Shown: one piece after another, positions 1-15,907 of the stretch | Position numbering within the stretch: position 1 is the stretch's first letter | Layout of the letters: every line of letters begins with the position of its first letter | Assembly: GCA_046724655.1 (NCBI GenBank) | Contig: JBKOWY010000112.1 | Coordinates: forward strand, 1-59,751 | Direction of reading: 5' to 3' | Length of the DNA stretch: 59,751 nucleotides | From: Actinomycetota bacterium | GTDB lineage: Bacteria > Actinomycetota > Acidimicrobiia > IMCC26256 > JACDBD01 | Made by a program: the position numbers and the translations under genes | The notes under the pieces: generated by a model | Told to the model about the DNA's origin: nothing | What the model saw: only the letters and a program-made list of their open reading frames with translations | The model's database searches: none

Positions 1-2763
1 GATCTGGGCGAGGGCGTAGTCGACGGCGCGCTCGTCGTCCATGGCATCGCCGTCGGCGCGTAGTTGGCGCGTGCGTTGATCGCCGAGCGCCGCGGTGAGG
101 ATCCGGGTGGTTTCGCGTCGCATCTCGCCGAAGTACCCGCCGGTGGTCGGGGGGGTGGGCTTCGATTCCGTGGCGACAGGCGTCTTGAGGTTGCGGACGA
201 CGATGCCGCGGGCGGCACCGTGGATGATCGCGGCGGCTTCTGGGCGGGTGGGAGCGAGGGCGCGGGCGACCACGTTCAGGCATGCGAACAGCCAGAAAGG
301 CTGGCGGGCCCAGTGGAGGTAGCGGATGGTGCGCCTGGCGATTTCGAGGGTGGCGGGCGTGTCGTCGAGGCGCGAGGTGAGAAGGGTGGCGAGCGCGACA
401 ACGTCGGCGTTCTCGTAGCCGAGCGCGGCGCTACGGTCGAGACTCTCACCGAGGCAGGCGCGGGCCTGGTCGGGATCGCTGTCGGCGAGTGCGACGCCGA
501 GGACCAGCAGTCCATGGGTGATGGCGTAGGGCATGTCGACCTGGCGGGCGAGGGCAATCGCTTCAGAAGCCAGGGGAACGGCGCCGAGTGCGTCACCGGC
601 ACAGGTGCGTGACCACGCCGCGATGGCAAGGTTCAGCGAGGCGACCGCGAGGTTGCCGTTGGCACGTGCGACATCGGCTGCCTGCATGGAAAACGCGACT
701 GCGTCGGCGAACGCGCCACGCACCAGCGCGCTGTCGGCGCGCGCCTGGCATACCAGGTTCTCGACGCCCGGGTCCGTATGCGCGTGGAAGCGCTGATCGG
801 CCTGGAGGGCCCCGTTGCACCGCTGCTCGACAAGTTCCAGGTCGCCGCGCGAGGCCGCGTCGACCGCAGTGATCGCGAGGGCGAGCGGAAAGTCGGCGTG
901 TTCGGTGGCGCCCCTCAGGGTCAGTGCGACCTCGCCCGGAAGCCCGAGCTGGTAGCCCCCTTCGTGTCCACGGGGCACGCTGCAAAGGATCCGGAACGCG
1001 GTGTCGACGTCGTCGACGTCGATCGCCCACGACCAGGCGGCGAGGAGATTGTCATGCTCGGCGCTGAGGCGGCCGGCCCACAGCACGTGTCCCGGGCCAT
1101 GGAGGTGCTCGAAGCCCTGCTCGGCGAAAGCGGTGTAGTGGCCCGCGTGACGGGCGCGCAGCGAGTCGGCCTCGCCGGTCTCGCCGAGACGTTCCTCGCC
1201 GTACTGTCGGATCGTCTCGAGGAGGCGGTAGCGGCTCTGGGGCCCGTGCTCCTCGGCGACCACCAAGGACCGGGCGACCAGGCTCGCGAGGCACTCGAAC
1301 ACCGCGTCGGGATGGACCCCGTCGCCGCCACAGACCGCTTCGGCGGCGTCGAGGGTGCAGCCGCCGGCGAACACCGCCAGCCGGGCCAAGAGCAGCCGCT
1401 CCGGCTCGTTCAACAGCTCATAGGACCAGTCGATCGCGGCGCGCAGCGTCTGGTGGCGCTCCACGCCACCCCGACGACCTCGTGCCAGGACCTGGAATCG
1501 CCGGTCGAGACGCTGCGCCAGCTCCGCCGGGGTCATCGCGGGGACCCGCGCCGCGGCGAGTTCGATCGCCAGCGGCACCCCGTCCAGGCGGCGACACACC
1601 TGTGCCACCGCGGCCGCGTTCTCGTCTGTGAGCTCGAAGTCGGCTGCGACCGCCGCCGCGCGCTCGACGAACAGGCGCACGGCGTCCGCCTCCACGATCG
1701 CATCGAGAGCGGCGTCCACGGGCGGCGCAGCCAGGGATGGCACCGGAACCAGCCGTTCGCCGTCCACGCCGAGGCCTTCGCGGCTCGTCGCCAACACCAC
1801 CAGCCGCGCACACGACCGCTGCAACGTGCTGACGAGGTGCGCGGCCGACTCCAGGACGTGCTCGCAGTTGTCGAGCACCACCAACAGCTCCTTCTGACGC
1901 AAGAACTCGACCAACGCCTCCTGGACCGTCTGGCCCACCCGCGCCGTTACCGAGAACACCCCGGCGACCGCCTCCGCCACCCCCGCGCGGTCGCGGACAG
2001 GCGCGAGCTCGCACCACCAAGCGCCGTCACGAAATCCGGGTAGCGCCTCGCCCGCCGCCTGCAACGCCAAACGCGTCTTGCCGACACCACCCACCCCGGT
2101 CAAGGTCACCACCCGGGCCTCACCGACCGCGGCAACCGCGCGGGCCAGCTCACTCACGCGGCCGATGAACGAACTCACCGCCAACGGCAAGTTCCCCACA
2201 AACGTGTCCAGCGACCGCAACGGCGCGAACTCGCTCACCAGATCGGGGTGGGTGACCTGGAAAATCGTCTCGGGACGACCCAGGTCCCGCAGGCGATGCT
2301 CCCCCATGTCGACCAGCGAAGACCCCGGTGGCAACGCATCGCGCACCAGCTCTCCAGTCGCGGCCGAGCACAGCACCTGCCCGCCATGACCGGCGCCCAT
2401 GATCCGCGCCGCTCGATTCAATGTCCGACCGAAATAGTCCCCAGCACGCTCCGTCGCAGTCCCCGTGTGAAGCCCCATCCGCACCCGCAACGGCCCCGTC
2501 TCAGCCCACGATTCCGCCGACAAGGCACACTGCGCCGCCACCGCCGCGTCCAGAGCGTCTCCGGCCCCCTCGAATACCGCAACCAGCCCATCGCCCATCG
2601 ACTTCAGCACGTGCCCGCCGTTGTCCTCGATCGCCTTGCCCAGGACCTCGTCGTGGCGCGCCAACGCACCCGGCATCGCGCCCGGATGCTCCTCCCACAG
2701 GCGCGTCGAGCCCTCGACGTCGGTGAAGAGAAAAGTCACCGTGCCGGTCGGCAGATCGCTCAT
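1..2763 (-). CDS. Class III adenylate/guanylate cyclase fused to a P-loop STAND/AAA ATPase and helical (TPR-like) repeats; 3' end runs off the window
   Basis: Absent from the ORF track because there is no stop in the window. ATG at 2763..2761 is followed by MSDLPTGTVTFLFTDVEGSTRLWEEHPGAM (cyclase N-terminus). Further on is VVTLTGVGGVGKTRLALQAAGEAL (Walker A, rc of ~2040-2110). The frame stays open for 921 codons down to base 1. Confidence 0.85.
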   Translation of the reverse strand, partial: MSDLPTGTVTFLFTDVEGSTRLWEEHPGAMPGALARHDEVLGKAIEDNGGHVLKSMGDGLVAVFEGAGDALDAAVAAQCALSAESWAETGPLRVRMGLHTGTATERAGDYFGRTLNRAARIMGAGHGGQVLCSAATGELVRDALPPGSSLVDMGEHRLRDLGRPETIFQVTHPDLVSEFAPLRSLDTFVGNLPLAVSSFIGRVSELARAVAAVGEARVVTLTGVGGVGKTRLALQAAGEALPGFRDGAWWCELAPVRDRAGVAEAVAGVFSVTARVGQTVQEALVEFLRQKELLVVLDNCEHVLESAAHLVSTLQRSCARLVVLATSREGLGVDGERLVPVPSLAAPPVDAALDAIVEADAVRLFVERAAAVAADFELTDENAAAVAQVCRRLDGVPLAIELAAARVPAMTPAELAQRLDRRFQVLARGRRGGVERHQTLRAAIDWSYELLNEPERLLLARLAVFAGGCTLDAAEAVCGGDGVHPDAVFECLASLVARSLVVAEEHGPQSRYRLLETIRQYGEERLGETGEADSLRARHAGHYTAFAEQGFEHLHGPGHVLWAGRLSAEHDNLLAAWSWAIDVDDVDTAFRILCSVPRGHEGGYQLGLPGEVALTLRGATEHADFPLALAITAVDAASRGDLELVEQRCNGALQADQRFHAHTDPGVENLVCQARADSALVRGAFADAVAFSMQAADVARANGNLAVASLNLAIAAWSRTCAGDALGAVPLASEAIALARQVDMPYAITHGLLVLGVALADSDPDQARACLGESLDRSAALGYENADVVALATLLTSRLDDTPATLEIARRTIRYLHWARQPFWLFACLNVVARALAPTRPEAAAIIHGAARGIVVRNLKTPVATESKPTPPTTGGYFGEMRRETTRILTAALGDQRTRQLRADGDAMDDERAVDYALAQI

Positions 2764-3249
2764 CGAAGCAAGGACCGCGTCAGCATTACGGCCCCCGGAT
2801 CGCCGGCCCTTCGGCCCGGGTCCAGAGTGACGCTGGGCTGGAGACGTCAACCTTGCGAGCGACAGCCTCGCTGAGCGCGGCCCCGATCACCGAGCGTTCG
2901 ACGTCGAGAGCGTGGAGCGGTCCGAGCACCAAGAAATTCACGCGCCGCTCCAGAATCCCTGTCCTTCCAAGACGGCGCCAAACGTCGCCTGCGGACGGAG
3001 CTTATGCCGTGCGTTGCAGTGCCGACGACAGCGAAATGACAGGGGAGACAGCGAACCGACAGGCCTCGCGCCCACGGCGGTGGTATCGGACCACGACTCT
3101 GAGGAACACTCCATGATGCCGGGAACGCCGTGCACGGGCGGGAGTAGTGCACCTACACGCAAGCCGGCGGCAGGGCCGCCCGGGTCTCGTTGCTGACCCC
3201 AAGCACCCGGCTCTTGGCTGCACCGCCCATCACATGAACGGAGAGATCG

Positions 3250-4116: not shown

Positions 4117-5199
4117 TCAGCGAACCGTCACCGGTACGCGTTGCACGGCGTTATTGGCGTAGCCCTTGACGTTCCACTCGGCCGCGACGGGCTGCTCGTT
4201 GCCGGCGCCGTCGTGCGCCCGGCACCACAGCTCGTAGTCGCCCGGGGCCTCGGGTTGCCAAGTCCAAGACCACGAGCGCCACGCGTATTCGCCGAGATCG
4301 TGGTCCAGTGACGCGTCGTGCCACGATCGCCCCTCGTCCGCGCTGACCTGCACCTGCGTGATCGGGGCGACACCCGACCATGCACGTCCGCGAATGGGGC
4401 ACGGACCGAGTGCGACGAAGCGGCGCCGAGTCATGAAGTCGGGGAAACCGGGCGGGACCATGAGCGCGCGGGGCGCCATCCGCGTGACGGGCTCCCCCGC
4501 ATCGTCGGGATCACGCAGCATGCGGTAGCCCTCTGCCTGTTGAAACCCGGCGAACGGTTCGGCCACCCCGGTGATGCGTGCGAGCCACTTCACGTTCGTC
4601 ATGCCGTACCAGCCCGGGACGACGAGCCGCAGGGGGAACCCGTGCTGCGGCAGCAGCGGCTCTCCGTTCATCTCGTACGCAAGGAGCACGTCGTCGCGCG
4701 ACGCTTCGGCAATGGGCAGGCTGCGCTCGTAGTCCTGTTCGATGCCGCCCTCCATGCCGTGGTCGAGGCCGGTGAACACGACCTCGACCGCGTCATCGAG
4801 CAGCTCGGCCTCCTCAAGCACGAGGCGCAGCGGAGTGCCCGTCCACTCGGCGGTTCCCACCGCTTCGACGAGCCACGGCTGACTGAACGGCCGCGGATCG
4901 AGGCGCGCCCGCCCGTTCCCGGCGCACTCCATCGTGACGGGAACGGTCCGAGCGGGACGTGCGTGGAGCTCGGCGAGCGACAGCGCGAATGGCCTGCGCA
5001 CGCGTCCCCCGATGCGCAGCGACCATGCGGCGCTGTCGACGCGCGGGATGTCGTAATGGATCAGGAGGTAGTGGAGGCCGACGGGAGTGAGGTCCCAGTC
5101 GAGCGCCTCGAGCGGCATGCCGCTGTTGCGAGTGGCGAGTTGGAGCTCCTCGACGCTGATGCCGGGCTCGGGCACTAGCTGCGCCCTCTCTGCCTTCAC
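4117..5199 (-). CDS. Sulfite oxidase-family molybdopterin oxidoreductase
   Basis: ORF track 4117..5301. Motifs VTMECAGNGR, GFPLRLVVPGWYGMTNVKWL and the C-terminal Ig-like dimerisation region match the SUOX/SorA family. Start is uncertain: 5301 lies only 11 nt from the divergent gene, and in-frame GTG at 5199 (or 5175) is more plausible. Confidence 0.8.
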   Translation of the reverse strand: MKAERAQLVPEPGISVEELQLATRNSGMPLEALDWDLTPVGLHYLLIHYDIPRVDSAAWSLRIGGRVRRPFALSLAELHARPARTVPVTMECAGNGRARLDPRPFSQPWLVEAVGTAEWTGTPLRLVLEEAELLDDAVEVVFTGLDHGMEGGIEQDYERSLPIAEASRDDVLLAYEMNGEPLLPQHGFPLRLVVPGWYGMTNVKWLARITGVAEPFAGFQQAEGYRMLRDPDDAGEPVTRMAPRALMVPPGFPDFMTRRRFVALGPCPIRGRAWSGVAPITQVQVSADEGRSWHDASLDHDLGEYAWRSWSWTWQPEAPGDYELWCRAHDGAGNEQPVAAEWNVKGYANNAVQRVPVTVR

Positions 5200-5312
5200 C
5201 GGCTGCACCCTATTCCGGCCGGGACCGTCGGCGCGAGCAAGACAGCGCGAGGGAACACCGATCGTCTCGTGCCCCAAACGCGGATACGAGCGCCCGTACA
5301 CTGCCGAACCTC

Positions 5313-6782
5313 ATGACGTTCCTCGCCTGGCGCGAGCGCTGGTTCGGTACGAAGCAGTTCACTCGTGTGCGAACCGGGGCGCGCCGCCACTGGGTCTTTC
5401 TCACCGTGCTCGGCGCAGGGCTTGGCCTTCGGTTCGTGACACAGCTCGCCTATCGACCGGCGCTCTTGTTCATCGATTCGTACAGCTACCTCGAGAACCT
5501 CCATGGCCTGAGCCCGAACAACGCCCAACCGATCGGCTACGTGATCTTCCTGCTGCGCCCCGTACTGTCGTTCGGGAACCTCGCCACGGTGGCCGCGCTC
5601 CAGCACATCTTGGGGTTGGCAATGGCGGTCGCGATCTATTCCGTCCTCGTCCGGCTCGGGTCGCCCCTGTGGCTTGCGCCGCTCGCCGCCGCGCCGGTTC
5701 TGCTCGACGCCTACCAGCTGCAGATCGAGCAGAACATCATGTCCGACGTCTTGTTCCAGGCTCTGGTGCTCGCTGCCGTCGTGCTGCTGCTCTGGAGCCG
5801 ACCCGTGACCTTGCCTGCGCTCGCGATCGCCGGCGCCCTATTCGGCCTGGCCACGATGGTCCGCACCGTGGGCCTGGTGCTGGTCATGCCCGCCGTCGCG
5901 TTCGCGCTGTTCTCCGGCGGCGGATGGCAGCGACTCACGCGAGCAGGGACCATCGCGCTGGCGTTCGCCGTGCCGGTAGGGGCTTACGCCGGCTATTACT
6001 GGATCGACACGGGAAGCGTTGGCCTCACCCGCGGCGATGCCCTTCTGCTCTACGGTCGGGCCGCGACCATTGTCGACTGCCCTGGGCTCGACATGCCGGA
6101 CTACGAGCGCGTGTTGTGCCCGAAAGAGCCGCGTGGACAGCGGCGGGGCGTCAACGACTACGCCCACCACAGCCCATATCCGGGACGAGTCGTGCCGCCG
6201 CCGGGCAAGAACGTAGACATTGTGCTGCGCGATTTTGCGCGTCGCGTGTTCGTGCACCAGCCGTTGGACTTCTCGAAACATGTCGTCACCGATTTCGGGA
6301 AGGGATTCGCCTGGCCGCGCCGCACGTTTGCCGGTGATGCGACCATCGAGAGGTGGCGGTTCCAGCGCGACTACCCGAACTTCGAACAGGACCCCGCGGC
6401 GACCATCCGGCAGCACGGCGGCGGTGGTGGGCCCGATGTCACGGAGCCTCTCGCGGTTTTCCTGCGCGGATATCAGCTCAGTGCGGGCTACGTACCCGGC
6501 CCTGTCCTTGGGCTCGCATTCGGCGTCGGCTTGATTGCTGCGAGTGGGGTTGGTCGGGCACGTCGATCTGGGTTGCGGGCCGCATGCGCGCTCACGACCC
6601 TCTGCGGGCTGTCCCTCCTCCTCGCTGCCGACGGGTTCCATTTCTCGTGGCGTTACCAGCTTCCTGCGCTCCCGCTCGCTCCCCTCGCCGGCGCCCTAGG
6701 TATCACCGCACTGATGGGATGGGTGAGTACGAGCGCTACCAGTCGCGTAGGGGCCGCCGTTACTGCGGACGGACGCGATTAG
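5313..6782 (+). CDS. Polytopic GT-C fold glycosyltransferase (PMT_2/ArnT-like, phospholipid-carrier dependent)
   Basis: ORF track 489 aa. It has many hydrophobic helices in the first ~250 aa, an acidic first-loop motif FIDSYSYLEN, and a soluble C-terminal part. The 3' end overlaps the convergent sqdB by 23 nt. Confidence 0.7.
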   Translation: MTFLAWRERWFGTKQFTRVRTGARRHWVFLTVLGAGLGLRFVTQLAYRPALLFIDSYSYLENLHGLSPNNAQPIGYVIFLLRPVLSFGNLATVAALQHILGLAMAVAIYSVLVRLGSPLWLAPLAAAPVLLDAYQLQIEQNIMSDVLFQALVLAAVVLLLWSRPVTLPALAIAGALFGLATMVRTVGLVLVMPAVAFALFSGGGWQRLTRAGTIALAFAVPVGAYAGYYWIDTGSVGLTRGDALLLYGRAATIVDCPGLDMPDYERVLCPKEPRGQRRGVNDYAHHSPYPGRVVPPPGKNVDIVLRDFARRVFVHQPLDFSKHVVTDFGKGFAWPRRTFAGDATIERWRFQRDYPNFEQDPAATIRQHGGGGGPDVTEPLAVFLRGYQLSAGYVPGPVLGLAFGVGLIAASGVGRARRSGLRAACALTTLCGLSLLLAADGFHFSWRYQLPALPLAPLAGALGITALMGWVSTSATSRVGAAVTADGRD

Positions 6783-7926
6783 CGGTTCGGCGCCAGTTCA
6801 CGAGTGGGAGCAGTGCGGCACGATCGACGCGGTGCTTGTAGCGCTCCGCGACGTCGAACATCGAGGCGATAAGCGTGTCGGACAAGTAGTGCGGTGTCAG
6901 ACCGAGGTCTACAAGTCCGGTATGGACGACGCTGTAGTAGTGGGCTTCGTCTTCCACACGCGGATTCTGGATGTTCTCGATGGAGACCTCTCCCGGATAC
7001 GTAGTGGCAACCACCTTGGCGATCTCCGTGATCGTCATGGTCTCCGTCATCTGGTTGAAGACGCGGAATTCCCCACGCTGGGCGGGCTGCTCGGAAGTCA
7101 GTCGAAGGCATTCGACCGTGTCGCGGATGTCGATGACGCCTCGTGTCTGACCTCCCTCGCCGTAGATCGTGAGTGGCTCCCCGAGTACGGCTTGGACGAC
7201 GAAGCGGTTCAGGACCGTCCCAAAGATCGCGTCGTAGTCGAACCGAGTCGCGAGCCGATCGTCCAGCGCGGTCTGGGGTGTCTGCTGTCCGTAGACAACC
7301 CCTTGGTTCAAGTCGGTGGCGCGTAGCCCCCAGGCACGGCACGCGAACTCGATGTTGTGGCTGTCGTGCACCTTGGTCAGGTGGTAGAAGGACCCCGGCC
7401 GCTTGGGGTAGAGCACCCGATCGGTGCGACCCTTGTGGTTCAGGTCCAGCCAACCCTCCTCGATGTCGATATTCGGCGTGCCGTACTCCCCCATGGTGCC
7501 GAGCTTGACGAGATGGATGTCGGGGTCGATCTCCTTGATCGCGTAAAGGACGTTCAGCGTCCCGATCACATTGTTGAACTGGGTGTACACGGCGTGCTCG
7601 CGATCGATCATCGAGTAGGGCGCAGCGCGCTGTTCGGCGAAGTGGATGATCGTCTCCGGATGAAACTGCTCGATCATCTCGTAGGTCGCGTGCGCGTCGG
7701 TGAGATCTACGACGAACACGTTGATCAGTCGACCGGTGTGCTCGTACCAGACTCTGGTTCGGATGTGGAGCGGCTCGACCGGGACGAGGCTCTCGACACC
7801 CATCTCGTGGTCGTACTGGCGCCGTACGAAGTTGTCGCCGATCGCGACATCGTGGCCGCACTCGCAGAGATGTAATGCAGTGGGCCAACCGAGGTACCCG
7901 TCGCCTCCCAGGATCAAGATCCGCAC
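6760..7926 (-). CDS. sqdB: UDP-sulfoquinovose synthase
   Basis: Long collinear matches to plant SQD1/bacterial SqdB as I remember them: GGDGYLGW, EQRAAPYSMID, HLVKLGTMGEYGTPNIDIEEG, SFYHLTKVHDSHNI, ATDLNQGVVYG, GGQTRG, NPRVEDEAHYY, PHYLSD. Start set at GTG 7926 because GGAGGAG lies 7 nt upstream. The ORF-track start at 8127 overlaps the upstream gene. Confidence 0.92.
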   Translation of the reverse strand: MRILILGGDGYLGWPTALHLCECGHDVAIGDNFVRRQYDHEMGVESLVPVEPLHIRTRVWYEHTGRLINVFVVDLTDAHATYEMIEQFHPETIIHFAEQRAAPYSMIDREHAVYTQFNNVIGTLNVLYAIKEIDPDIHLVKLGTMGEYGTPNIDIEEGWLDLNHKGRTDRVLYPKRPGSFYHLTKVHDSHNIEFACRAWGLRATDLNQGVVYGQQTPQTALDDRLATRFDYDAIFGTVLNRFVVQAVLGEPLTIYGEGGQTRGVIDIRDTVECLRLTSEQPAQRGEFRVFNQMTETMTITEIAKVVATTYPGEVSIENIQNPRVEDEAHYYSVVHTGLVDLGLTPHYLSDTLIASMFDVAERYKHRVDRAALLPLVNWRRTANRVRPQ

Positions 7927-8059
7927 TCCGGTCTCCTCCGCCGGTAGGCCGCTGAGTTGTGGTCTTACCGTGGGACCATCCGCCGGGCTGGGCCCAACAT
8001 TCTTAGCACGCAACTTCACGCTCTCGGCATCGCCGTCGGCGAGGTAGTCAGGACATATC

Positions 8060-8875
8060 TCACCGTGGCAGTCGAGAATTGGGGATGCGCTTCGTACGGT
8101 GACGCTCACGAAGCCACGTGCCGACAAGCACCCTCGCGTAACGAGGCCCGTAGACGAACCACCACCCTTTCTTGGTCTTCCCGTGCGAGCGTTTCCGCAT
8201 CGTCATCGGGATTTCAACGAACCGAAACCCCTTGGCCAGCGTCTCCATGAGGAGTTCGGACGCTTGGTATTGCGGCTGGCGCAGTGTGACGGATTCCGTG
8301 ACCTCGACGGTCATGGCTCGAAAGCCCGAGGACGTGTCCGTGATGTGCCGACCGGTGAGCAGGCTCGCGAGCAGCGCGAAGAAACGTGACCCGAGCCGGC
8401 GAATTGGATCAGTTGTCTCCTGACGGCCGAGCCACCGCGAGCCGACAACGAAGTCCGCTTCGCCGGCCACGAGCGGCCGCAGGAGGTGGTCGATCTCGCT
8501 GCCGGCGTACTGCCCGTCAGCATCGGTCGTGACGATGAAACGCGCGCCGGCGCGGCGGGCCAGTGAGTAGCCGACGCGGAAAGCTGTCCCCTGACCGCGA
8601 TTCGTCGCGAACGTGCAAACGTACGCGGTGTGGGCGTCGGCCACGGACGCCGTGCCGTCGGTATCGCCGTCCACCACGACGATGCAGCTCAGGGGCAGCC
8701 CGCACGCCTCTGCGGGCAGCTCGTCGAGCACGCCGCCGATAGACGCCTCCTCCTGGTACGCGGCGATCACGACGACCACGGGCGAGAGCTCGACGTCCCC
8801 ATAACGAGCATGGAATGCGCTCATCGCAGCTTGGTCAGCCTCGTCGAGGCCGGGGGCCAACAGCCCTTGTTTCAT
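8060..8875 (-). CDS. GT2 glycosyltransferase of the polyprenyl-phosphate sugar synthase type (DPM1/GtrB/ArnC-like)
   Basis: C-terminal 271 aa of ORF 8060..9331. Features: VVIAAYQEE, VVVDGDTDGT, TTDADGQY (DxD), TDTSSGFRA, and a basic/hydrophobic tail KKGWWFVYGPRYARVLVGTWL. ATG at 8875. The rest of the tracked ORF is antisense to the SDR gene. No obvious SD, so it may be leaderless. Confidence 0.8.
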   Translation of the reverse strand: MKQGLLAPGLDEADQAAMSAFHARYGDVELSPVVVVIAAYQEEASIGGVLDELPAEACGLPLSCIVVVDGDTDGTASVADAHTAYVCTFATNRGQGTAFRVGYSLARRAGARFIVTTDADGQYAGSEIDHLLRPLVAGEADFVVGSRWLGRQETTDPIRRLGSRFFALLASLLTGRHITDTSSGFRAMTVEVTESVTLRQPQYQASELLMETLAKGFRFVEIPMTMRKRSHGKTKKGWWFVYGPRYARVLVGTWLRERHRTKRIPNSRLPR

Positions 8876-8897
8876 CCCGAAAAAGTACGCTGCCGCC

Positions 8898-9674
8898 GTG
8901 CCCGCGCTCGACCCGTTGGCCACGTTCCGCCTTGACGGTCGCGTGGCCATCGTGACGGGCGCGAGCTCGGGACTCGGCGCTCGGTTCGCGCGTGTGCTCG
9001 ACGCTGCCGGCGCCCGAGTCGTGCTCGCGGCCCGCCGGCTCGATCGGCTCGAAGCTCTGGCCGGCGAGCTCTCCGATGTGCTGCCCGTTGCATGCGACCT
9101 GTCCGACGCCGATGCGCCGAGCGCGGTCGTCGACGCCACCCTCGGCCACTTCGGCACGATCGACGTGCTCGTGAACAACGCCGGTGTGGATGCGCTCGCG
9201 CCGGCGCTGGACGAGCCGATCGATACGTTCCGCGGCGTGCTCGAGGTGAACCTGGTTGCGCCGTTCGCGCTCGCCCAGCTCTCGGCCCGCTCGATGGTCG
9301 AGAGCAAGAAGGGCGGGACGATTGTCAACATCGCGTCGCTCTGGGGACTGGTCGGCGTCGGCCAGATCCCGATGGCTAGCTACGCGGCGTCCAAGGGCGG
9401 CCTCGTCAACCTCACACGCGAGCTTGCCGCCCAGTGGGCGCGCCAGAGCGTACGAGTGAACGCGCTCGCGCCCGGCTGGTTCCCGACCGAGATGACCGAA
9501 GGCCGCATGTTCGGGGACGAGCGCTCGGAACGCTGGATCCGCAGCCGGACACCGATGGGGCGCGAGGGCGACGAGCACGAACTCGACGGCGCGCTGCTCT
9601 TCCTGGCCAGCGACGCGAGCAGCTACGTAACCGGCCAGATCCTGAGCGTCGACGGAGGCTGGACGGCGATCTGA
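8898..9674 (+). CDS. Short-chain dehydrogenase/reductase (SDR)
   Basis: 258 aa with VTGASSGLG (TGxxxGxG), NNAG and YAASKGG (YxxxK). GTG start lies 22 nt from the divergent GT2 start. Confidence 0.9.
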   Translation: MPALDPLATFRLDGRVAIVTGASSGLGARFARVLDAAGARVVLAARRLDRLEALAGELSDVLPVACDLSDADAPSAVVDATLGHFGTIDVLVNNAGVDALAPALDEPIDTFRGVLEVNLVAPFALAQLSARSMVESKKGGTIVNIASLWGLVGVGQIPMASYAASKGGLVNLTRELAAQWARQSVRVNALAPGWFPTEMTEGRMFGDERSERWIRSRTPMGREGDEHELDGALLFLASDASSYVTGQILSVDGGWTAI

Positions 9675-9684
9675 GGAGTGACTT

Positions 9685-9725
9685 ATGCGCTCCTGAACCT
9701 CGCGATGCGAAGTTCAGGAGCGCAT
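9685..9725. terminator. Perfect 14-bp inverted repeat between convergent genes (putative bidirectional terminator)
   Basis: ATGCGCTCCTGAAC (9685-9698) and GTTCAGGAGCGCAT (9712-9725) flank a 13-nt loop. It lies between the SDR stop (9674) and the peroxiredoxin stop (9731). Confidence 0.6.
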
Positions 9726-9730
9726 CATCG

Positions 9731-10192
9731 TCAGGCGTTCTGCAGCTCGTACAGGTCGGCCAGCACTTCGGCGGGATGCACGGGAATGTCCGAGACCTCA
9801 TACGACTTGCGGATCACACCCTCGGGATCGATGAGGTAGCTGTAGCGCTTCGAGAAGCTGACCTTGTCGGATCCTGGATCCCGCGTCTCGTACTTCACGC
9901 CGACCTGCTCGTCGTAGTCGGACAACAACCGGAACGGGAAGTCGTGCTTCTCGCGGAACGCCTTGTTGGCCTCGGGCGCGTCGAAGCTGATCCCGAGGAT
10001 CTCGCAGTTCATGCTCTCGTAGTCAGCAGCCTGGTCACGCAGGCCTTTCCCCTCGATCGTTCAGCCTGGGGTGTCGGCCATCGGGTACCACCACAGCAGC
10101 ACCCAGCGGCCGCGCAGATCGGAGAGGGTGACGGCGTTCCCGTCCTGGTCCGGGACCGTGAAGTCCGGAGCTTCCGTACCTGGTTGGAGCAC
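9731..10192 (-). CDS. Bcp-type peroxiredoxin with in-frame TGA (10063..10061) at the peroxidatic Cys position: candidate selenoprotein, alternatively a pseudogene
   Basis: Manual translation from GTG 10192 gives VLQPGTEAPDFTVPDQDGNAVTLSDLRGRWVLLWWYPMADTPG[TGA]TIEGKGLRDQAADYESMNCEILGISFD... This is collinear with E. coli Bcp ...YFYPKAMTPGCTVQACGLRD...VLGIS. The ORF track lists only 9731..10012. Confidence 0.7.
10028..10045 (-). other. Candidate SECIS-like hairpin downstream of the in-frame UGA
   Basis: The mRNA reads UGA-N15-GGCCUG CGUGAC CAGGCU: a 6-bp stem (one G-U) and a 6-nt loop containing G/U. The spacing is compatible with bacterial SECIS rules as I recall them. The stem is modest and has not been scored computationally. 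Confidence 0.3.
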
Positions 10193-10194
10193 GT

Positions 10195-11397
10195 CTAAAC
10201 CGCCGCCTTCTCGAGGACGTGCACCGCGCACGCCGAGCCGAGCCCGATCACGTGCGTCAGCCCGACCTTGGCGCCCTCGATCTGGCGATCGCCGGCCTCG
10301 CCCCGCAGGTGCGTTGCGACCTCGTAGAGATTGGCGACCCCCGTCGCGCCGAGCGGATGTCCCTTGGAAATGAGCCCACCAGACACGTTCACGGGGATCT
10401 CACCGTCACGCCACGGGCCCCGCTCCTCGATGAACTTGCCCGCCTCGCCCGGCTTGCACAGCCCGAGGTTGTCGTAATGGATCAGCTCCGCCGTGGCGAA
10501 GCAGTCGTGCAGCTCGACGAGGTCGAGGTCGGACGGCTCGACGCCGGCGGTCTCGTACGCCTCGTTGGCCGCCTGGCGCGTGAGCGTGTTCACGTCCGGC
10601 TGGACCTGATCCGTCTCGGTCCACGGATCAGAGGTCATCACCGACGCCGAGATCTTCACGGCCCGCTTGCGCTGATCGTCGGACACGGTCTTGAGCTTCT
10701 CCTCCGACACCAGCACGAGCGCGGCGCCACCGTCGCCGGTCGGGCAGCACATCAGCAACGTGTTCGGGTACGCCATCATCTCGGCGCCCATGATCTCGTC
10801 GAGCGAGAACTCCTTCTGGTACTGGGCCAGCGGGTTCAGCGTGGAATGGGCATGGTTCTTCTCGGCGACCTTGGCGAACTGCTCGAACCCGACGCCGCCG
10901 TGCTCGTTCGCGTACTCCATGCCGGCTTGCGCGAACACGCCCGGCATCAGAGTCGTGCCGAGCCGGCCCTCGACGCTCATGACCGAGCCGTAGCGCCCCG
11001 ACGGCTCGAACACCTTCTTGTCGGAGCGGGGCGCGCTCCCGAGCAGCCCGGCCTTCCCCATCTTCTCGAGCCCGACGGCAATGCCCATGTCGGCCTCGCC
11101 GGACTTGATCGCCATGTACGCGCAGCGGACGGCGGTGGCGCCCGTCGCGCACGCATTCGCCACGTTGTAGACGGGAATGCCGTTCTGGCCGACCTGCTTC
11201 TGGATGCGCTGACCAACCCCGGTGCTCGCCTCCACGAGGTTCCCGGCCCCCATGACGTCCATGTCGGCCATCGTGACGCCGGCGTCGTCGAGGGCGCCGA
11301 GTGCCGCTTCGGCACCGAGGTCGATGAGGTCCTTGTCGGGATACCGCGTGAACTTCGTCATCGACGCGCCCAGGATCCAGACGTCGCGCTCAGCCAT
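10195..11397 (-). CDS. Thiolase-fold protein (SCP-x/lipid-transfer type acetyl-CoA acetyltransferase family)
   Basis: 400 aa with NVANACATGATAV (active-site Cys region) and C-terminal GHPLGATG, GLGSACA. Its TAG stop lies 2 nt before the peroxiredoxin GTG. Confidence 0.9.
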   Translation of the reverse strand: MAERDVWILGASMTKFTRYPDKDLIDLGAEAALGALDDAGVTMADMDVMGAGNLVEASTGVGQRIQKQVGQNGIPVYNVANACATGATAVRCAYMAIKSGEADMGIAVGLEKMGKAGLLGSAPRSDKKVFEPSGRYGSVMSVEGRLGTTLMPGVFAQAGMEYANEHGGVGFEQFAKVAEKNHAHSTLNPLAQYQKEFSLDEIMGAEMMAYPNTLLMCCPTGDGGAALVLVSEEKLKTVSDDQRKRAVKISASVMTSDPWTETDQVQPDVNTLTRQAANEAYETAGVEPSDLDLVELHDCFATAELIHYDNLGLCKPGEAGKFIEERGPWRDGEIPVNVSGGLISKGHPLGATGVANLYEVATHLRGEAGDRQIEGAKVGLTHVIGLGSACAVHVLEKAAV

Positions 11398-11409
11398 CGC
11401 TCGCTCCCT

Positions 11410-11808
11410 TCACTTCGGCTCGTAGCCGAATTGGATCGCCTCGGCGCCGTCGTCGTCGACGCCGGCCACCATGGTCGTCAGTCGCACTTGCATGCCGAAC
11501 TGCACGTGGTCGGGGTCCGGCTCCACGTTCAGCAGGTTGGCCTTCACGACGCCGCCGCCCGAGAGGTCGACGATGGCCGACACGTACGGCGTCGGCACGC
11601 CCGGCGCCGCCCGGTGCACGATCGTGAAGCTGCGCACCGTGCCGTCGTCGGACAAGCGCTGCTTCGTAAAGGACCGGCCAGCGCACTTGGCGCACGCGTT
11701 GCGGCGATCGAAGTAGAGCGCACCGCAACTGTCGCACCGATTGGCGACCAGATAAGGCGCGCCGTCGTCGAGTACGAGGTAGTCGACGATAGGAACCTGC
11801 TTGCCCAT
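11410..11808 (-). CDS. DUF35-type Zn-ribbon/OB-fold protein (thiolase partner)
   Basis: 132 aa with a CDSCGALYFDRRNACAKCAG zinc ribbon followed by an OB-fold-like region. It lies 12 nt upstream of the thiolase, a classic pairing. Confidence 0.85.
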   Translation of the reverse strand: MGKQVPIVDYLVLDDGAPYLVANRCDSCGALYFDRRNACAKCAGRSFTKQRLSDDGTVRSFTIVHRAAPGVPTPYVSAIVDLSGGGVVKANLLNVEPDPDHVQFGMQVRLTTMVAGVDDDGAEAIQFGYEPK

Positions 11809-11865
11809 TCCCCCTCCTCCGGTTCCCGCACGCTACCGCAGTACCGTCGTGCGAGACTCAGGCGG

Positions 11866-11952
11866 GCGAGCGTGGCGGAACTGGCATACGCGACGGGTTT
11901 AGGACCCGTTGCCCTTCGGGGCTTGGGGGTTCGAGTCCCTCCGCTCGCACCA
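11866..11952 (+). tRNA. tRNA-Leu (anticodon UAG), CCA encoded
   Basis: Hand fold: acceptor GCGAGCG/CGCTCGC, anticodon stem ACGGG/CCCGT with loop TTTAGGA, long variable arm GCCCTTCGGGGC, T arm GGGGG-TTCGAGT-CCCTC, discriminator A plus CCA. Confidence 0.9.
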
Positions 11953-13617: not shown

Positions 13618-14366
13618 TGTGTGCGCGACGGACGCGGCGCCGGGGGCTCCGCGAGCGCCGCCTTCTCGAGCTCGAAGAGCTCGAAGATCCCCTTCTCGGC
13701 CAGGGCCAAGAGGTCGTCGAGCTCGGACCGCGAGAAAGGCGTCCCTTCGGCGGTGCCTTGCACCTCGATGAACCGACCGGCCCCCGTCATGACGACGTTC
13801 ATGTCGACCTCGGCCCGCACGTCCTCGGAGTAGTCGAGGTCGAGATGTGGGAGCGCGTCCACGACGCCGACCGAGACCGCGGCGCAGGCCTCTTTGATGG
13901 GATGGGCGGCGATCGTCCCTGCCGCGACCATCCTCGTGAACGCATCATGGAGCGCGACGTACCCGCCGCAGATCGCCGCCGTGCGCGTGCCGCCGTCGGC
14001 TTGGAGGACGTCGCAGTCGACCGTGATCTGGAGCTCGGGAATCATTTCCAGGTCGGTGACGGCGCGCAGCGACCGTCCGATGAGCCGCTGGATCTCCTGG
14101 GTCCGCCCCGACTGACGCCCGCGGGCGGCTTCCCGGTCCGATCGCTCGACGGTCGACCCCGGCAGCATCGAGTACTCGGCGGTCACCCAGCCCCGTCCCG
14201 TGCCCCGTAGCCACGGCGGGACGCGCTCCTCCAATGACGCCGTGCACAACACGCGGGTCTGTCCGAAGTCGACCAGCGTCGAGCCGGTGGCGAAGTCGGT
14301 GAAGTCGCGCACGAACGACACCGGTCGCAGCTCGTTCGGTTCCCGACCGTCCCGTCGAATCCCCAT
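13614..14366 (-). CDS. rph: Ribonuclease PH
   Basis: 250 aa with [51 protein letters not shown]. Confidence 0.95.
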
Positions 14367-14384
14367 CGTCCTCAGAGCGTCTTT

Positions 14385-15119
14385 CTACACGCGCGTCACG
14401 AGGTGCGGTTTTGCGAGCACCGCTGGTTCACCGAACGCCTCGCTGCCCTCGGCCGCCGACAGCGCCGGGTCGAACGTGGGCCAGATGTGCGTCAGCATGA
14501 GCCGGGACGCCTTCGCTTCGCGGGCGGCAAGGCCGGCTTCGCGCGCGGTGAGGTGCCAAGGCACGCCCTTGTGCCCTTCCTGGTAGGTCGCTTCCGACAC
14601 GACGAGGTCGGCGCCGGCGCCGAACGCGTCGACGGTCCATCCGGGACCGGTGTCGGCCGTGTACACGAGGCGTTTGCCGTCGGCGCTGAGCTCGACGGCA
14701 TAGGTGGGCGGCGGATGATCCGTGCGGGCGAAGCGCAGAGCCATGTCCCCGATCTCGACGCCGTCGCCGTCGCCGACGACCTTCCAGTCGAACGCATCGC
14801 CCCAGCTGTCGACGACACCTCCCAGCCGCTCCTCGAGCCCTTCGGGCGCGAACAGCGGGAGGCCGGCGCGCTTCACCCCGTAGCGCATGACGACGTGCAG
14901 CCCATAGATGTCGGCGCAGTGGTCGGGGTGCTGGTGCGTGATCACCAGCGCGTCTACCTCGTCGATCGCGGCGTGCTCCTGCAGATGGGGAAGGGTTCCG
15001 TTGCCGCAGTCGACCCACACGGTCGCTCGCCCGCCGCGCACGAGGTAGCCGCTACAGGCACCGAACGGAGGCGCGCCGTACGAGCCCGAGCAGCCGAGCA
15101 CGGTCAGCTCCACTCCCAC
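14385..15119 (-). CDS. MBL-fold metallo-hydrolase
   Basis: 244 aa with the ITHQHPDHCADI (HxHxDH) motif. GTG at 15119 or 15113. It overlaps the murI 3' end. Confidence 0.85.
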   Translation of the reverse strand: MGVELTVLGCSGSYGAPPFGACSGYLVRGGRATVWVDCGNGTLPHLQEHAAIDEVDALVITHQHPDHCADIYGLHVVMRYGVKRAGLPLFAPEGLEERLGGVVDSWGDAFDWKVVGDGDGVEIGDMALRFARTDHPPPTYAVELSADGKRLVYTADTGPGWTVDAFGAGADLVVSEATYQEGHKGVPWHLTAREAGLAAREAKASRLMLTHIWPTFDPALSAAEGSEAFGEPAVLAKPHLVTRV

Positions 15120-15907
15120 GCCTCCACGGTCTCGACTTCCGGCCCCAGGAACCGTGCTCCCAGGGTGCGGAAGGTCGTGAGATCACCGCTCGTGAGGAAC
15201 ACACGCCGGGGTGGTTCTAATCCACTCGGCCGGGCGTGGCCCGCGCCACCGAGCAACAGGCGTACCTCGAACGCGGTCTCATCGGCGCTCGAGACGAGCA
15301 CGACGTTGCGCCCCATCACGTCGCCAATGGTGCGCGCGAGCAGCGGATAGTGCGTGCACCCCAGGACCAGCGTGTCGACCTCGGCGGCGCGCACCGGAGC
15401 GAGCAGCCGCTCGGCCAGCACGTGCACCTCCTCCGAATCGACGTCGCCGGCCTCGACGAACTCGGCGAAGCCCGGACACGCCGCGCACGTCAGCCTGATC
15501 GCGGCCCCGCTGGCGCCGGCGGCGCGTTGGTACGCACCCGAGGCGATCGTGCCGACCGTGCCGATGACACCAATGCGTCCCAACTCTGTGACCTTCACCG
15601 CCGCGCGCAATCCGGGCTCGATCACGCCGATCACCGGAACGTCGTATGCACGGCGGAGGTCGCCGAGGGCGACCGACGACACACGGTTGCAGGCGACGAC
15701 GAGCATCTTCATGTCCTGGTCGGCGAGGAGATCGGCCATCTCCAGGGCGTACTTCGTGACGTCGCGGTCGGGCTTGGGACCGTACGGGAACCGCCCCGTG
15801 TCGCCGAAGTACACGAAGGGCTCATCGGGCAGGAGATCGATCAGGGCGCGAAGCACCGTGAGACCACCGAGCCCGGAGTCGATCACGGCGATCGGTCGCT
15901 CGCTCAT
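15104..15907 (-). CDS. murI: Glutamate racemase
   Basis: 267 aa with IAVIDSGLGGLTV, FVYFGDTGRFPYGPK, VVACNRVS, VLGCTHYPLL. ATGA overlap with the upstream gene. Confidence 0.95.
   Translation of the reverse strand: MSERPIAVIDSGLGGLTVLRALIDLLPDEPFVYFGDTGRFPYGPKPDRDVTKYALEMADLLADQDMKMLVVACNRVSSVALGDLRRAYDVPVIGVIEPGLRAAVKVTELGRIGVIGTVGTIASGAYQRAAGASGAAIRLTCAACPGFAEFVEAGDVDSEEVHVLAERLLAPVRAAEVDTLVLGCTHYPLLARTIGDVMGRNVVLVSSADETAFEVRLLLGGAGHARPSGLEPPRRVFLTSGDLTTFRTLGARFLGPEVETVEAWEWS

Follow-up and report, generated by a model that had tools for sequence, protein, structure and literature searches.

In bacteria, the only established fate of UDP-sulfoquinovose (UDP-SQ) is the glycerolipid SQDG (PMC13436972). 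The locus analysed here raises the question of whether an actinobacterium might use UDP-SQ for something else. The window, a 59.7-kb actinobacterial stretch of DNA, holds genes for a sulfite-oxidase-like Mo-enzyme, a GT-C-like membrane protein, the UDP-SQ synthase SqdB and a GT2 glycosyltransferase. A preliminary description of this DNA proposed that sqdB is wired to the GT2 and GT-C genes, and that the Mo-enzyme gene may reflect sulfite handling.

The locus and its UDP-sulfoquinovose synthase

The open reading frames of the window (4117–5301 (−), 5313–6782 (+), 6760–8127 (−) and 8060–9331 (−)) place all four genes, and the 23-nucleotide convergent overlap of sqdB and the GT-C gene, where the preliminary description had put them (Table 1). 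Within these frames, the inner start given earlier for the Mo-enzyme, 5199, corresponds to the GTG of codon 35, the SQD1-collinear start of sqdB is the GTG at 7926, and the GT2 domain begins after the ATG at 8875. An identical GT-C protein is encoded on a JGI metagenome contig, for which an independent gene caller gives products of 394, 489, 388 and 271 amino acids in the gene order and on the strands seen in the window. The GT2 and sqdB genes are separated by 133 nucleotides that contain a GGAGGAG ribosome-binding site. A convergent layout in which sqdB and the GT-C gene overlap or abut also occurs in the close relatives L001/L081, L089 and L105, with an overlap of 41 nucleotides between the L001 frames as called. 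The GT-C gene of the window runs towards GT2–sqdB instead of being co-transcribed with them, which counts against a common pathway.

Table 1. Positions of the main features in the window
Feature	Position	Strand	Basis
GT2 glycosyltransferase, polyisoprenyl-phosphate sugar synthase type, 271 aa	8060..8875	−	profiles, PDB matches, linkage
Ribosome-binding site GGAGGAG, 6 nt before sqdB GTG 7926	7933..7939	−	read from sequence
SqdB/SQD1-type UDP-sulfoquinovose synthase, 388 aa	6760..7926	−	SQD1 identity, PDB 1qrr, UDPsulfquin_syn
Convergent 3′ ends of sqdB and GT-C gene, 23-nt overlap	6760..6782		ORF coordinates
Remote GT-C/PMT-like polytopic membrane protein, 489 aa	5313..6782	+	family profiles, fold, fusions

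The sqdB assignment made earlier is confirmed by 57% identity to Arabidopsis SQD1 over 382 amino acids and by the match to PDB 1qrr (E = 2e-152), in which Thr145, Tyr182, His183 and Lys186 are kept. In Pfam and NCBIfam, the protein is an Epimerase/UDPsulfquin_syn match of 457.8 bits, below the cut-off of 575. Actinobacterial SqdB sequences form clusters separate from those of cyanobacteria and Acidobacteriota. The actinobacterial sequences include a deep split, and a subgroup only 59–61% identical to the window SqdB still has the full gene cluster.

Two predicted glycosyltransferases

The GT2 matches Pfam PF00535 (Glycos_transf_2; 2e-17), and its top NCBIfam matches are polyprenyl-phosphate sugar synthases throughout, all scoring below their equivalog cut-offs: AglJ (97.6 bits), Dol-P-hexose transferase (95.4) and PpgS (83.5, against a cut-off of 370). 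When compared with the PDB, the family profile (A2) gives near full-length alignments with PfDPMS (5mlz, 1.8e-19), ArnC (about 1e-15) and GtrB (2e-8), with the motif TTDADGQY falling on the DAD (DXD motif) of DPMS. This comparison groups the enzyme with DPMS, ArnC and GtrB and not with SQDG synthases, as the preliminary description had it. The protein lacks C-terminal transmembrane helices and is soluble or peripheral. It is a predicted polyprenyl-phosphate-SQ synthase for which the enzyme class is supported, whereas we infer the UDP-SQ donor from gene linkage only; no feature of the sequence ties the enzyme to a sulfonated sugar.

For the membrane protein, the earlier label ‘GT-C/PMT_2-like’ is weak when the window sequence is taken alone (only PMT_2, E = 0.019, below the Pfam threshold) and holds at the level of family and fold. 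Among 38 family members, 25 match PF02366 (PMT; best 9.5e-7) and 10 match PMT_2. With an AF2 model (pLDDT 79, pTM 0.82) as query, the first 14 Foldseek matches are all GT-C-fold proteins (Pmt4, AglB, Pmt1/2, PimE, PIG-U, ArnT and STT3), at TM-scores of 0.26–0.43, that is, below 0.5, and at 13–16% identity. The protein has about 10 predicted transmembrane helices and a 164-amino-acid outer loop. Every invariant loop residue, including Asp55 in the first outer loop, lies on the predicted outer side, and the outer loops also carry a conserved Cys pair. The predicted topology is N-in/C-in, which would leave a GT2 fused to the C terminus in the cytoplasm. These profiles and the model mark the protein as a distant GT-C/PMT group member; it is the predicted polyprenyl-phosphate-SQ-dependent transferase.

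Conservation of the cluster and competing readings

Linkage was assessed in 80 SqdB-seeded and 78 GT-C-seeded actinobacterial loci, with 80 SqdB loci from cyanobacteria and Acidobacteriota serving as controls. The co-conservation in relatives that the preliminary description had put forward as a check is evident in both directions. A GT2 ortholog adjoins SqdB in 69 of the 80 SqdB-seeded loci, 69 carry a gene for a GtrA-type flippase (PF04138, 8.7e-11), and 38 have a GT-C-like gene, either of the window type (25) or encoding a GT87-like membrane protein (13). Reciprocally, GT-C-seeded loci contain GT2 (66/78), SqdB (59/78) and GtrA (59/78); those lacking these partners are mostly truncated contigs. 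Counting against the pathway, about 12 of the GT-C homologs are paralogs that stand alone. In about 150 related genomes SqdB is accompanied by these two lipid-carrier enzymes, which are often fused to each other. Nonomuraea jiangxiensis, Kribbella sindirgiensis, Actinopolyspora mortivallis and Saccharopolyspora taberi are among the carriers in culture. GT-C and GT2 share one in-frame reading frame in 66 loci (62 distinct contigs), and such fusions also occur among database proteins (P0100, P0103 and P0111). None of the 80 control loci has GT2, GtrA or GT-C partners. The GtrA gene common to most relatives’ clusters could not have been seen from the window, where, as in its closest relatives, no GtrA gene lies within reach.

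Ordinary SQDG synthesis would require either that the GT2 act on diacylglycerol or that an SqdX/SqdD-type enzyme come from another part of the genome, and would make the GT-C gene an unrelated neighbour. These data make such a role of the locus very improbable. SQDG has precedent in its favour, and a transferase gene could lie outside the 59.7-kb window. Within it, however, no SqdX-like GT4 is detectable (tblastn, best E = 1.9), consistent with the earlier statement that a GT4 SQDG synthase is missing here. The only conserved GT4 near the actinobacterial loci is the glgA_Coryne glycogen synthase of Pseudonocardiaceae (579 bits), besides one unclassified GT4 in L005. The GT2 aligns over its full length with polyprenyl-phosphate glycosyltransferases rather than with GT4 or GT8 SQDG enzymes, and chance adjacency of the GT-C gene is ruled out because of the fusions and the reciprocal co-conservation. 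The SqdX pattern is instead that of the cyanobacterial controls, which account for all 28–29 of the 80 control loci with an SqdX-like GT4.

Most relatives also conserve SDR2, a further nucleotide-sugar epimerase/dehydratase that could provide or modify the GT2 donor. GT2, GtrA and GT-C might then carry another sugar, such as a hexose or HexNAc from SDR2, on the pattern of the mycobacterial PpgS/Rv3632/Rv3779 galactosamine system, while SqdB serves a separate transferase acting on the same polymer or lipid, so that clustering would reflect one shared product. PpgS is among the best NCBIfam matches of the GT2, and the epimerase–GT2–GtrA arrangement of most relatives resembles the pairing of PpgS (Rv3631), a GT2, with the small membrane protein Rv3632 (PMC3485146). 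The lack of any sulfonated-sugar signature in the GT2 also fits such a reading. Yet SDR2 is absent from the window lineage and from L001, L002, L089 and L105, all of which retain GT2, SqdB and GT-C. That the window lineage keeps these three genes without SDR2 or GtrA argues that the product of SqdB, not that of the epimerase, is the GT2 donor. Moreover, the GT-C-seeded set contains no full-length SDR2–GT2–GT-C locus without SqdB, and the actinobacterial neighbourhoods hold no other conserved glycosyltransferase able to use UDP-SQ. Transport of a different sugar therefore appears rather unlikely.

In about 33 SqdB-seeded loci out of 80, most of them from Streptosporangiaceae MAGs, the order is SDR2–GT2–GtrA–SqdB and no GT-C gene is recognisable within 8 kb, which counts against the pathway. 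The GT2 could instead make the end product itself: lipid-linked SQ, either polyprenyl-phosphate-SQ or a different SQ-lipid, would serve the membrane as an anionic glycolipid that spares phosphate, and the GT-C protein would mainly anchor or activate the GT2 rather than act as a transferase. In Mycobacterium tuberculosis Ppm1, the D1 domain is a membrane anchor or activator for Ppm1-D2. The GT2, which has no transmembrane segment and is fused to a membrane protein in 62 contigs, formally resembles this D1–D2 arrangement, and one-third of the loci lack a nearby GT-C gene. Invariant residues on predicted outer loops (the loop-1 Asp and the conserved Cys pair) would not be expected of a mere anchor, however; the fold matches are catalytic GT-C enzymes, and the co-conserved GtrA flippase gene implies that the lipid-linked sugar is put to use at the outer face. 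We accordingly regard a purely lipid-linked end product as improbable.

The sulfite-oxidase-like gene (Pfam Oxidored_molyb and Mo-co_dimer) is a lineage-local neighbour outside the system. It is missing from all 80 SqdB-seeded loci and from 77 of the 78 GT-C-seeded loci. The lone recurrence, L105, is a related MAG in which the enzyme is 68% identical, its gene is again adjacent and divergent, and the whole local synteny is shared. The close relatives L001/L081, L002 and L089 lack the gene, though they share the remaining synteny. SqdB consumes sulfite (PMC4388408), and the adjacency in two genomes might suggest that the Mo-enzyme buffers or supplies it, but a sulfite oxidase would remove the SqdB substrate instead of supplying it, and we give functional coupling hardly any credence. 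Of the preliminary proposal, then, the connection of sqdB to GT2 and GT-C is supported, through co-conservation, the 62-contig fusions, GtrA and the partner-free controls, and the sulfite-handling link is not.

A candidate sulfoquinovosylation route

On balance, we think it probable from sequence and gene linkage that the three genes specify a lipid-carrier-dependent sulfoquinovosylation route. SqdB would make UDP-SQ, a step that homology supports well. The DPMS/ArnC/GtrB/PpgS-like GT2 would move SQ from UDP-SQ to polyprenyl monophosphate at the inner membrane face, and the loaded carrier would be flipped, in most relatives by the cluster-encoded GtrA-family protein. In the window lineage, a flippase may be encoded elsewhere in the genome or be unneeded. 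The GT-C protein, with its outward-facing conserved residues, including the loop-1 Asp, would then pass SQ to an extracytoplasmic acceptor; candidate classes are a cell-wall polymer, a lipoglycan and a secreted protein.

This proposed logic of loading, flipping and transfer outside is that of three-component (multi-component transmembrane) glycosylation of the GtrA/GtrB/GtrC type, known from O-antigen glucosylation and from CsbB/GtcA/YfhO of Firmicutes (PMC8035078, PMC11127046). As there, genes for a GT2 polyprenyl-phosphate sugar synthase and a polytopic GT-C-fold protein lie together, joined in most relatives by one for a small membrane protein of the GtrA family. The present clusters differ in having their own UDP-SQ synthase and a predicted sulfonated 6-deoxyhexose, the cargo of no known such system. 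In addition, the GT2 lacks the C-terminal transmembrane hairpin of GtrB and is often fused to the GT-C C terminus, and the window lineage has no GtrA. The actinobacterial PpgS/Rv3632/Rv3779 system of M. tuberculosis, which modifies arabinogalactan with galactosamine (PMC3485146), likewise combines a short GT2 making a polyprenyl-phosphate sugar with a small membrane partner and a GT-C protein (the likeness to Rv3779 being one of class). Unlike that system, the clusters encode SqdB rather than a GalNAc-supplying epimerase, the window GT2 scores far below the PpgS cut-off, and their hosts are non-mycolate actinomycetes and Acidimicrobiia.

ArnC and ArnT act in undecaprenyl-phosphate-L-Ara4FN synthesis and lipid A modification, and Ppm1 and Pmt in polyprenyl-phosphate-mannose synthesis and protein O-mannosylation. 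Among solved structures, those of ArnC rank second in similarity to the GT2, and the GT-C protein resembles PMTs in its best structural and Pfam matches and in the large outer loop that separates TM7 from TM8. It departs from ArnT and Pmt in its low identity and in having about 10 predicted transmembrane helices rather than 11–13, and the loop is helical, without the MIR domain of Pmt. The predicted sugar also differs, and the acceptor may. With the SqdB/SqdX (plant SQD1/SQD2) and SqdBDC/SqdA systems, the clusters share the first enzyme with its catalytic residues; in place of a GT4 SqdX/SQD2 or GT8 SqdD partner they have lipid-carrier enzymes.

Outside glycerolipids, UDP-SQ has just one established fate, in SQ-containing N-glycans of archaea, such as the Agl3-dependent glycan of Sulfolobus acidocaldarius (PMC4388408) and, on the S-layer glycoprotein of Haloferax volcanii, SQ-Hex repeats (PMC4343526). 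Like the product proposed here, these are surface glycoconjugates built on a polyisoprenoid carrier, and in NCBIfam the GT2 scores best against Dol-P-hexose synthases from haloarchaea (AglJ). In these archaea, SQ joins a growing dolichol-linked oligosaccharide that the oligosaccharyltransferase AglB transfers en bloc. The route proposed for these bacteria would instead deliver a monosaccharide from a polyprenyl-phosphate donor to a PMT/ArnT-like GT-C protein. No description of such a sulfoquinovosylation route was found in the searchable literature. If the proposal is correct, it would give a known three-component system a new sugar, and the actinobacterial envelope a phosphate-free anionic sulfonate decoration.

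SqdB and the organization of its locus

The sqdB gene of the window encodes a predicted synthase of UDP-sulfoquinovose (UDP-SQ; SQD1/SqdB/Agl3, EC 3.13.1.1), an assignment that is secure by homology. The protein matches Arabidopsis SQD1 (57% identity, 382 aa) and PDB entry 1qrr (E=2e-152, residues 2-382 covered), and it conserves Thr145, Tyr182 and Lys186 of SQD1 together with the SQD1-specific His183 (YHxxK). Furthermore, the motifs GTMGEYG, FYHLTK and GGDGYLG, the last forming the N-terminal GxxGxxG NAD site, align to their SQD1 positions. The score against NCBIfam model NF041015 lies below the equivalog cut-off (457.8 bits versus 575) and is about ten times that of the next-best model (42 bits). 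As no other model comes close to NF041015, its seed set is a likelier cause of the shortfall than a difference in function. The sqdB call of the preliminary description is thus upheld by full-length, collinear SQD1 homology with retained catalytic residues. In average-linkage clustering on identity, which gives a grouping and not a phylogeny, the first split sets 138 actinobacterial SqdB proteins apart from the 74 controls.

Two ORFs of the cluster extend upstream of the probable gene starts (see table). SqdB homology begins at the inner GTG, which GGAGGAG precedes at 6-nt spacing. Likewise, the GT2 domain starts just after the inner ATG, as does every alignment with an ortholog, and the upstream part of this ORF overlaps a genuine divergent SDR gene. 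A JGI metagenome contig that encodes an identical GT-C protein was annotated by an independent gene caller with the same five genes (products of 394, 489, 388, 271 and 258 aa). The sqdB and GT-C genes are convergent and overlap by 23 nt (6760-6782), which confirms the overlap first proposed.

Coordinates of features in the window and in loci from related or control genomes (L-numbers)
Locus	Feature	Coordinates	Strand	Remark
Window	Guanylate_cyc + HTH_77 regulator gene	1-2763	-	JGI calls; 932 aa, extends into the left end
L239	rve_3 transposase fragment	78-305		Near-identical contig
Window	GC3-based ORF call	613-2043	+	
Window	SUOX-like ORF	4117-5301	-	ORF table
Window	GT-C-like ORF	5313-6782	+	ORF table
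Window	SqdB ORF	6760-8127	-	ORF table; inner start GTG 7926 fits preliminary description
Window	GT2 ORF	8060-9331	-	ORF table; inner start ATG 8875 fits preliminary description
Window	SDR gene	8898-9674		
Window	AhpC/TSA-like ORF	9731-10060	-	109 aa
L025	GT-C::GT2 fusion	6996-9335		
L030	SDR2	7296-8219		
L014	SDR2	5851-6933		
L019	Class I SAM methyltransferase	11175-11909		
L035	Polytopic protein, weak GT87 match	14408-15691		
L041	Glycogen-synthase GT4	11250-11909		
L097	Glycogen-synthase GT4	14091-14834		
L189	Acidobacteriota cluster example	6224-7381		
L227	Acidobacteriota cluster example	9297-11174		
L230	Acidobacteriota cluster example	1319-3010		

The flanking genes are unrelated housekeeping genes, encoding a thiolase with a ChsH2-like OB-fold protein, RNase PH and glutamate racemase. 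The sqdB region (window 7001-8000) has a G+C content of 0.62, compared with 0.65-0.72 around it, and the third-position GC of sqdB is under the 0.78 threshold that most genes nearby pass; strong amino-acid constraint or foreign origin could account for this. At the left end, the GC3-based call on the + strand is probably an antisense shadow of the regulator gene, and beyond that end contig L239 carries an rve_3 transposase fragment. The AhpC/TSA-like ORF covers Pfam profile positions 44-123, the C-terminal two thirds only, and looks N-terminally short by this alignment; it is kept at 87-91% identity in L081, L089 and L105.

Two putative glycosyltransferases and their fusions

The 271-aa GT2 protein matches PF00535, and its best three NCBIfam matches are AglJ, a haloarchaeal Dol-P-hexose transferase and mycobacterial PpgS, all families that make polyprenyl- or dolichyl-phosphate sugars. 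The scores (83-98 bits against cut-offs of 325-375) give no equivalog-level match to a named member, and by this measure the predicted enzyme is an equivalog of none and forms a separate subfamily. When a profile of 15 orthologs was compared with the PDB, Pyrococcus DPMS ranked first (1.8e-19), followed by three ArnC entries (around 1e-15) and GtrB (2e-8). The profile-PDB alignment is nearly full length (positions ~20-238 of 248) and places TTDADGQY on the DAD of DPMS. These matches, which span the GT-A catalytic domain with its DXD motif and the interface region after it, put the putative enzyme among the polyisoprenyl-phosphate glycosyltransferases (PI-GTs: DPMS, GtrB, ArnC, PpgS and AglJ), and the rankings are in keeping with the DPM1/GtrB/ArnC kind named at the outset. 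The protein has no C-terminal transmembrane (TM) anchor, ending instead in a basic tail without a hydrophobic segment. Such an anchor is present in GtrB, ArnC and PfDPMS and absent in Ppm1-D2, PpgS and human DPM1; it does not define the family as a whole. That the GT2 acceptor is polyprenyl phosphate and its donor UDP-SQ we infer from gene linkage only.

The 489-aa membrane protein is more remote. On its own, the sequence reaches PMT_2 at E=0.019 (15.6 bits versus a cut-off of 26.1), and Pfam and NCBIfam return nothing significant; for this reason its assignment required a scan of 38 orthologs, an AF2 model and Foldseek. PF02366 (Pfam PMT) is found in 25 of the 38 orthologs (best 9.5e-7) and PMT_2 in 10, the family profile reaches Pmt1 in the PDB at E=0.11, and some homologs carry the database name 'phospholipid carrier-dependent glycosyltransferase'. 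The AF2 model (pLDDT 79, pTM 0.82) gives 14 leading Foldseek PDB matches that all have the GT-C fold, including Pmt4, AglB, Pmt1/2, PimE, PIG-U, ArnT and STT3, with probabilities of 0.84-1.0 but E values of 1.4e-3 to 5e-2 and TM-scores of only 0.26-0.43. A hydropathy and helix model predicts about ten TM helices; the N- and C-termini would lie inside, and TM7 and TM8 would be joined by an outer loop of 164 residues. In this predicted topology the protein is polytopic with a conserved acidic residue in its first extracytoplasmic loop, Asp55 (IDSY), which follows TM1 and is invariant in the 38 sequences. The invariant loop residues (Asp55, the YQxQIE motif, WRY and a Cys pair) are all predicted to lie outside. 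We conclude that the protein is probably a distant GT-C group member that resembles PMT and ArnT and belongs to no named family.

The GT-C and GT2 domains form a single, uninterrupted in-frame ORF in 66 loci on 62 distinct contigs (L003, L025, L037, L061, L064, L092, L109 and 59 others). GT-C is N-terminal and GT2 C-terminal in these ORFs of ~740-870 aa, and fusion proteins of 740-759 aa are present in the protein database. The hosts include Gandjariella, Amycolatopsis, Saccharomonospora, many Kribbella and Micromonosporaceae. To our knowledge, no natural fusion of these two enzyme classes has been described. The predicted C-in topology of GT-C would leave the fused GT2 in the cytoplasm, and in the 62 contigs GT-C supplies the TM anchor that GT2 lacks. 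It is conceivable that the GT-C-like protein is only such an anchor and that lipid-linked SQ is the end product; we consider this decidedly unlikely for a protein whose conserved face is predicted to lie outside. The in-frame fusion to a PI-GT indirectly supports the predicted use of a polyprenyl-P-sugar donor by the GT-C-like protein.

Lone GT-C paralogs occur in about 12 loci (including L083, L084, L087, L099, L104, L132, L153-L155 and L157); SqdB, GT2 and GtrA are all missing within 10 kb of these. In Saccharopolyspora montiporae one copy is clustered (L042) and another stands alone (L104), and the family may therefore also use other donors.

Conservation of the gene neighbourhood

Neighbours within 8 kb were compared around the best 80 of more than 590 SqdB relatives from a scan with one genome per GTDB species; all 80 loci are from Actinomycetota save one MAG labelled Melainabacteria. 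Neighbour clusters were built from non-overlapping ORFs chosen by GC3-GC2 selection, to guard against the antisense ORFs typical of high-GC DNA. A GT2 ortholog lies near SqdB in 69 of the 80 loci, as does a gene of the flippase-type GtrA family (PF04138, 8.7e-11). A second extended-SDR epimerase/dehydratase (SDR2) accompanies 55, the window-type GT-C 25, a SAM methyltransferase 14 and a different, GT87-like polytopic protein (Pfam 2e-4) 13; loci without these partners are mostly on short contigs. In the reciprocal direction, 78 further loci seeded with the GT-C family contain GT2 (66), SDR2 (62), SqdB (59) and GtrA (59). The full cluster is still present around an Acidimicrobiia SqdB subgroup that is only 59-61% identical to the window protein. 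The control was a set of 80 loci from cyanobacteria and Acidobacteriota seeded with Arabidopsis SQD1, none of which has GtrA, a window-type GT-C or an orthologous GT2.

Given this two-way co-conservation, which the preliminary description had proposed as a test, together with the fusions and the absence from control clades, comparative genomics shows that SqdB, GT2 and GT-C, usually with the GtrA flippase, form one functional unit. The window lineage (the window with L001/L081, L002, L089 and L105) has a reduced layout, GT2>SqdB><GT-C, that is free of GtrA and SDR2. Neither tblastn nor a purpose-built HMM found GtrA in the window, L001, L002, L081, L089 or L105; PI-GT, GtrA and GT-C do not occur together in the window and its nearest relatives and do so in the wider family. 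Some 33 Streptosporangiaceae-type loci have no GT-C nearby.

Several variations accompany the cluster. SDR2, of the nucleotide-sugar epimerase/dehydratase type, usually abuts or slightly overlaps the GT-C/GT2 gene and scores below every NCBIfam cut-off; it might be a 4-epimerase whose substrate is UDP-Glc/Gal or even UDP-SQ. About 21 relative loci have a class I SAM methyltransferase. The window has neither gene; their products might epimerize or methylate SQ. In Nonomuraea, Microtetraspora, Streptosporangium and Actinomadura (L004-L015, L021, L035), a rearranged cluster, SqdB-MT-GtrA><GT2-SDR2, carries no window-type GT-C but instead another polytopic protein, which matches GT87 weakly (PF09594, E=2e-4). 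Matches to SqdB, GT2, GT-C, SDR and thiolase are split over several frames in L089 and L105, both Microflora Danica MAGs, most likely by long-read indel errors rather than as pseudogenes.

We regard ordinary SQDG synthesis as very improbable here. A cyanobacterial SqdX query retrieves nothing from the window (E=1.9) and, from the actinobacterial loci, only glycogen synthases (glgA_Coryne) and, in L005, a single GT4 that is unclassified; the same query gives 28 matches in the control loci, where a GT4 SqdX-like gene stands beside SqdB in 28-29 cyanobacterial cases. SqdD (GT8), SqdA and SqdC are not represented among the families of the conserved neighbour clusters. By the SqdX query and these clusters, the locus shows neither the SqdX/SQD2 GT4 nor the SqdD/SqdA/SqdC partner that marks an SQDG locus. 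The one conserved GT4 near SqdB, found in ~17 Pseudonocardiaceae loci, was considered as SqdX and rejected as a Corynebacterium-type glycogen synthase (TIGR02149, 579 bits). In L041, L097 and about 15 other loci it is convergent with SqdB and directly downstream, a position that could lead to confusion with sqdX.

The sulfite-oxidase-family Mo-enzyme (SUOX-like) gene next to GT-C had suggested a role in sulfite handling. Its SUOX-fold domains were confirmed (SorA 228 bits versus a cut-off of 600), but a SUOX-like gene adjoins the cluster in none of the 80 SqdB-seeded loci and one of the 78 GT-C-seeded loci (1 of 158 overall). This sole case, L105, comes from a close relative and shares the overall synteny, and the gene is absent from the equally close L001/L081, L002 and L089. 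We treat it as a lineage-local neighbour; since the linkage is not conserved, the proposed link to sqdB was rejected, and functional coupling is now hardly credible.

Within the control set (L159-L238), Acidobacteriota SqdB proteins are 67-71% identical to plant SQD1 and are flanked by a GT21-family membrane GT2 (PF13506 2e-33, 34 loci), a 626-aa ArnT/PMT_2-type GT-C (PF13231 1.2e-18, 31 loci) and, in 29 loci, an asparagine-synthase-like gene. SqdB and GT-C are thus associated a second time, apparently independently, in another phylum, and the cluster of SqdB, ArnT-like GT-C and GT21 is a hint that the principle may not be confined to a single phylum.

A candidate lipid-carrier route for sulfoquinovose

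In the route that we propose, SqdB would make UDP-SQ, as its homology indicates; GT2 would use UDP-SQ to form polyprenyl-P-SQ; the lipid-linked SQ would be flipped; and GT-C would transfer SQ to an extracytoplasmic acceptor. By analogy with PpgS, the GT2/GtrA/GT-C module might carry a different sugar, which we judge unlikely. The window lineage keeps exactly GT2, SqdB and GT-C without SDR2, which argues that the SqdB product is the GT2 donor. On the present sequence evidence we lean towards the full lipid-carrier mechanism for SQ. The SqdB, GT2 and GT-C order of the preliminary description is substantially strengthened by co-conservation, fusions and control loci, and only its side idea of sulfite handling is given up. 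The wider proposal, that many soil Actinomycetota (Acidimicrobiia, Pseudonocardiales, Streptosporangiales, Kribbella and Micromonosporaceae) make polyprenyl-P-SQ and that a dedicated, often bifunctional GT-C::GT2 puts SQ on an envelope polymer or proteins, stands at an even chance.

SQ production is attributed almost entirely to phototroph sulfolipid and a few archaeal N-glycans. UDP-SQ is known to be used for SQDG (PMC13436972) and for archaeal N-glycans, in Sulfolobus (PMC4388408) and as SQ-Hex repeats in Haloferax (PMC4343526). The candidate system would work similarly to Gtr-type three-component (multi-component transmembrane) glycosylation systems (PMC8035078, PMC11127046) and, within Actinomycetota, resembles PpgS/Rv3632/Rv3779 (PMC3485146); ArnC/ArnT and Ppm1/Pmt are also alike. 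It differs in that its sugar-nucleotide gene is SqdB, its GT-C and GT2 are frequently fused and both transferases fall in their own subfamilies. Full-text searches, whose coverage leaves out most subscription journals, returned no description of a bacterial SQ lipid-carrier system, and a 2026 SQ review does not mention a bacterial system of SqdB, GT2 and GT-C. An Actinoplanes gsf GtrA cluster (PMC13390465) proved unrelated to SqdB. The candidate system would be a new form of three-component, lipid-carrier glycosylation, one reserved for a sulfonated sugar.

Because several cultured carriers exist, the SQ hypothesis is directly testable; they include Nonomuraea jiangxiensis CGMCC 4.6533, Kribbella sindirgiensis DSM 27082, Actinopolyspora mortivallis, Saccharopolyspora taberi JCM 9383, Amycolatopsis alkalitolerans and Gandjariella thermophila. 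If true, it would provide the first bacterial SQ glycoconjugate outside glycerolipids and the first lipid-P-SQ donor in any organism. The enzymology would be new, with a polyprenyl-P glycosyltransferase specific for a sulfonated sugar and a GT-C that uses its product, and structural studies would gain an attractive target in the natural GT-C::GT2 fusion. A further consequence would be that not every metagenomic sqdB (K06118) should be taken as evidence of sulfolipid remodelling. For Gram-positive actinomycetes, a phosphate-free anionic surface modification would bear on phosphate limitation, phage and antibiotic interactions and chemotaxonomy. In soils, these bacteria would constitute a non-phototrophic source of SQ, widening the SQ/sulfoglycolysis branch of the sulfur cycle by a new producer class and substrate type.
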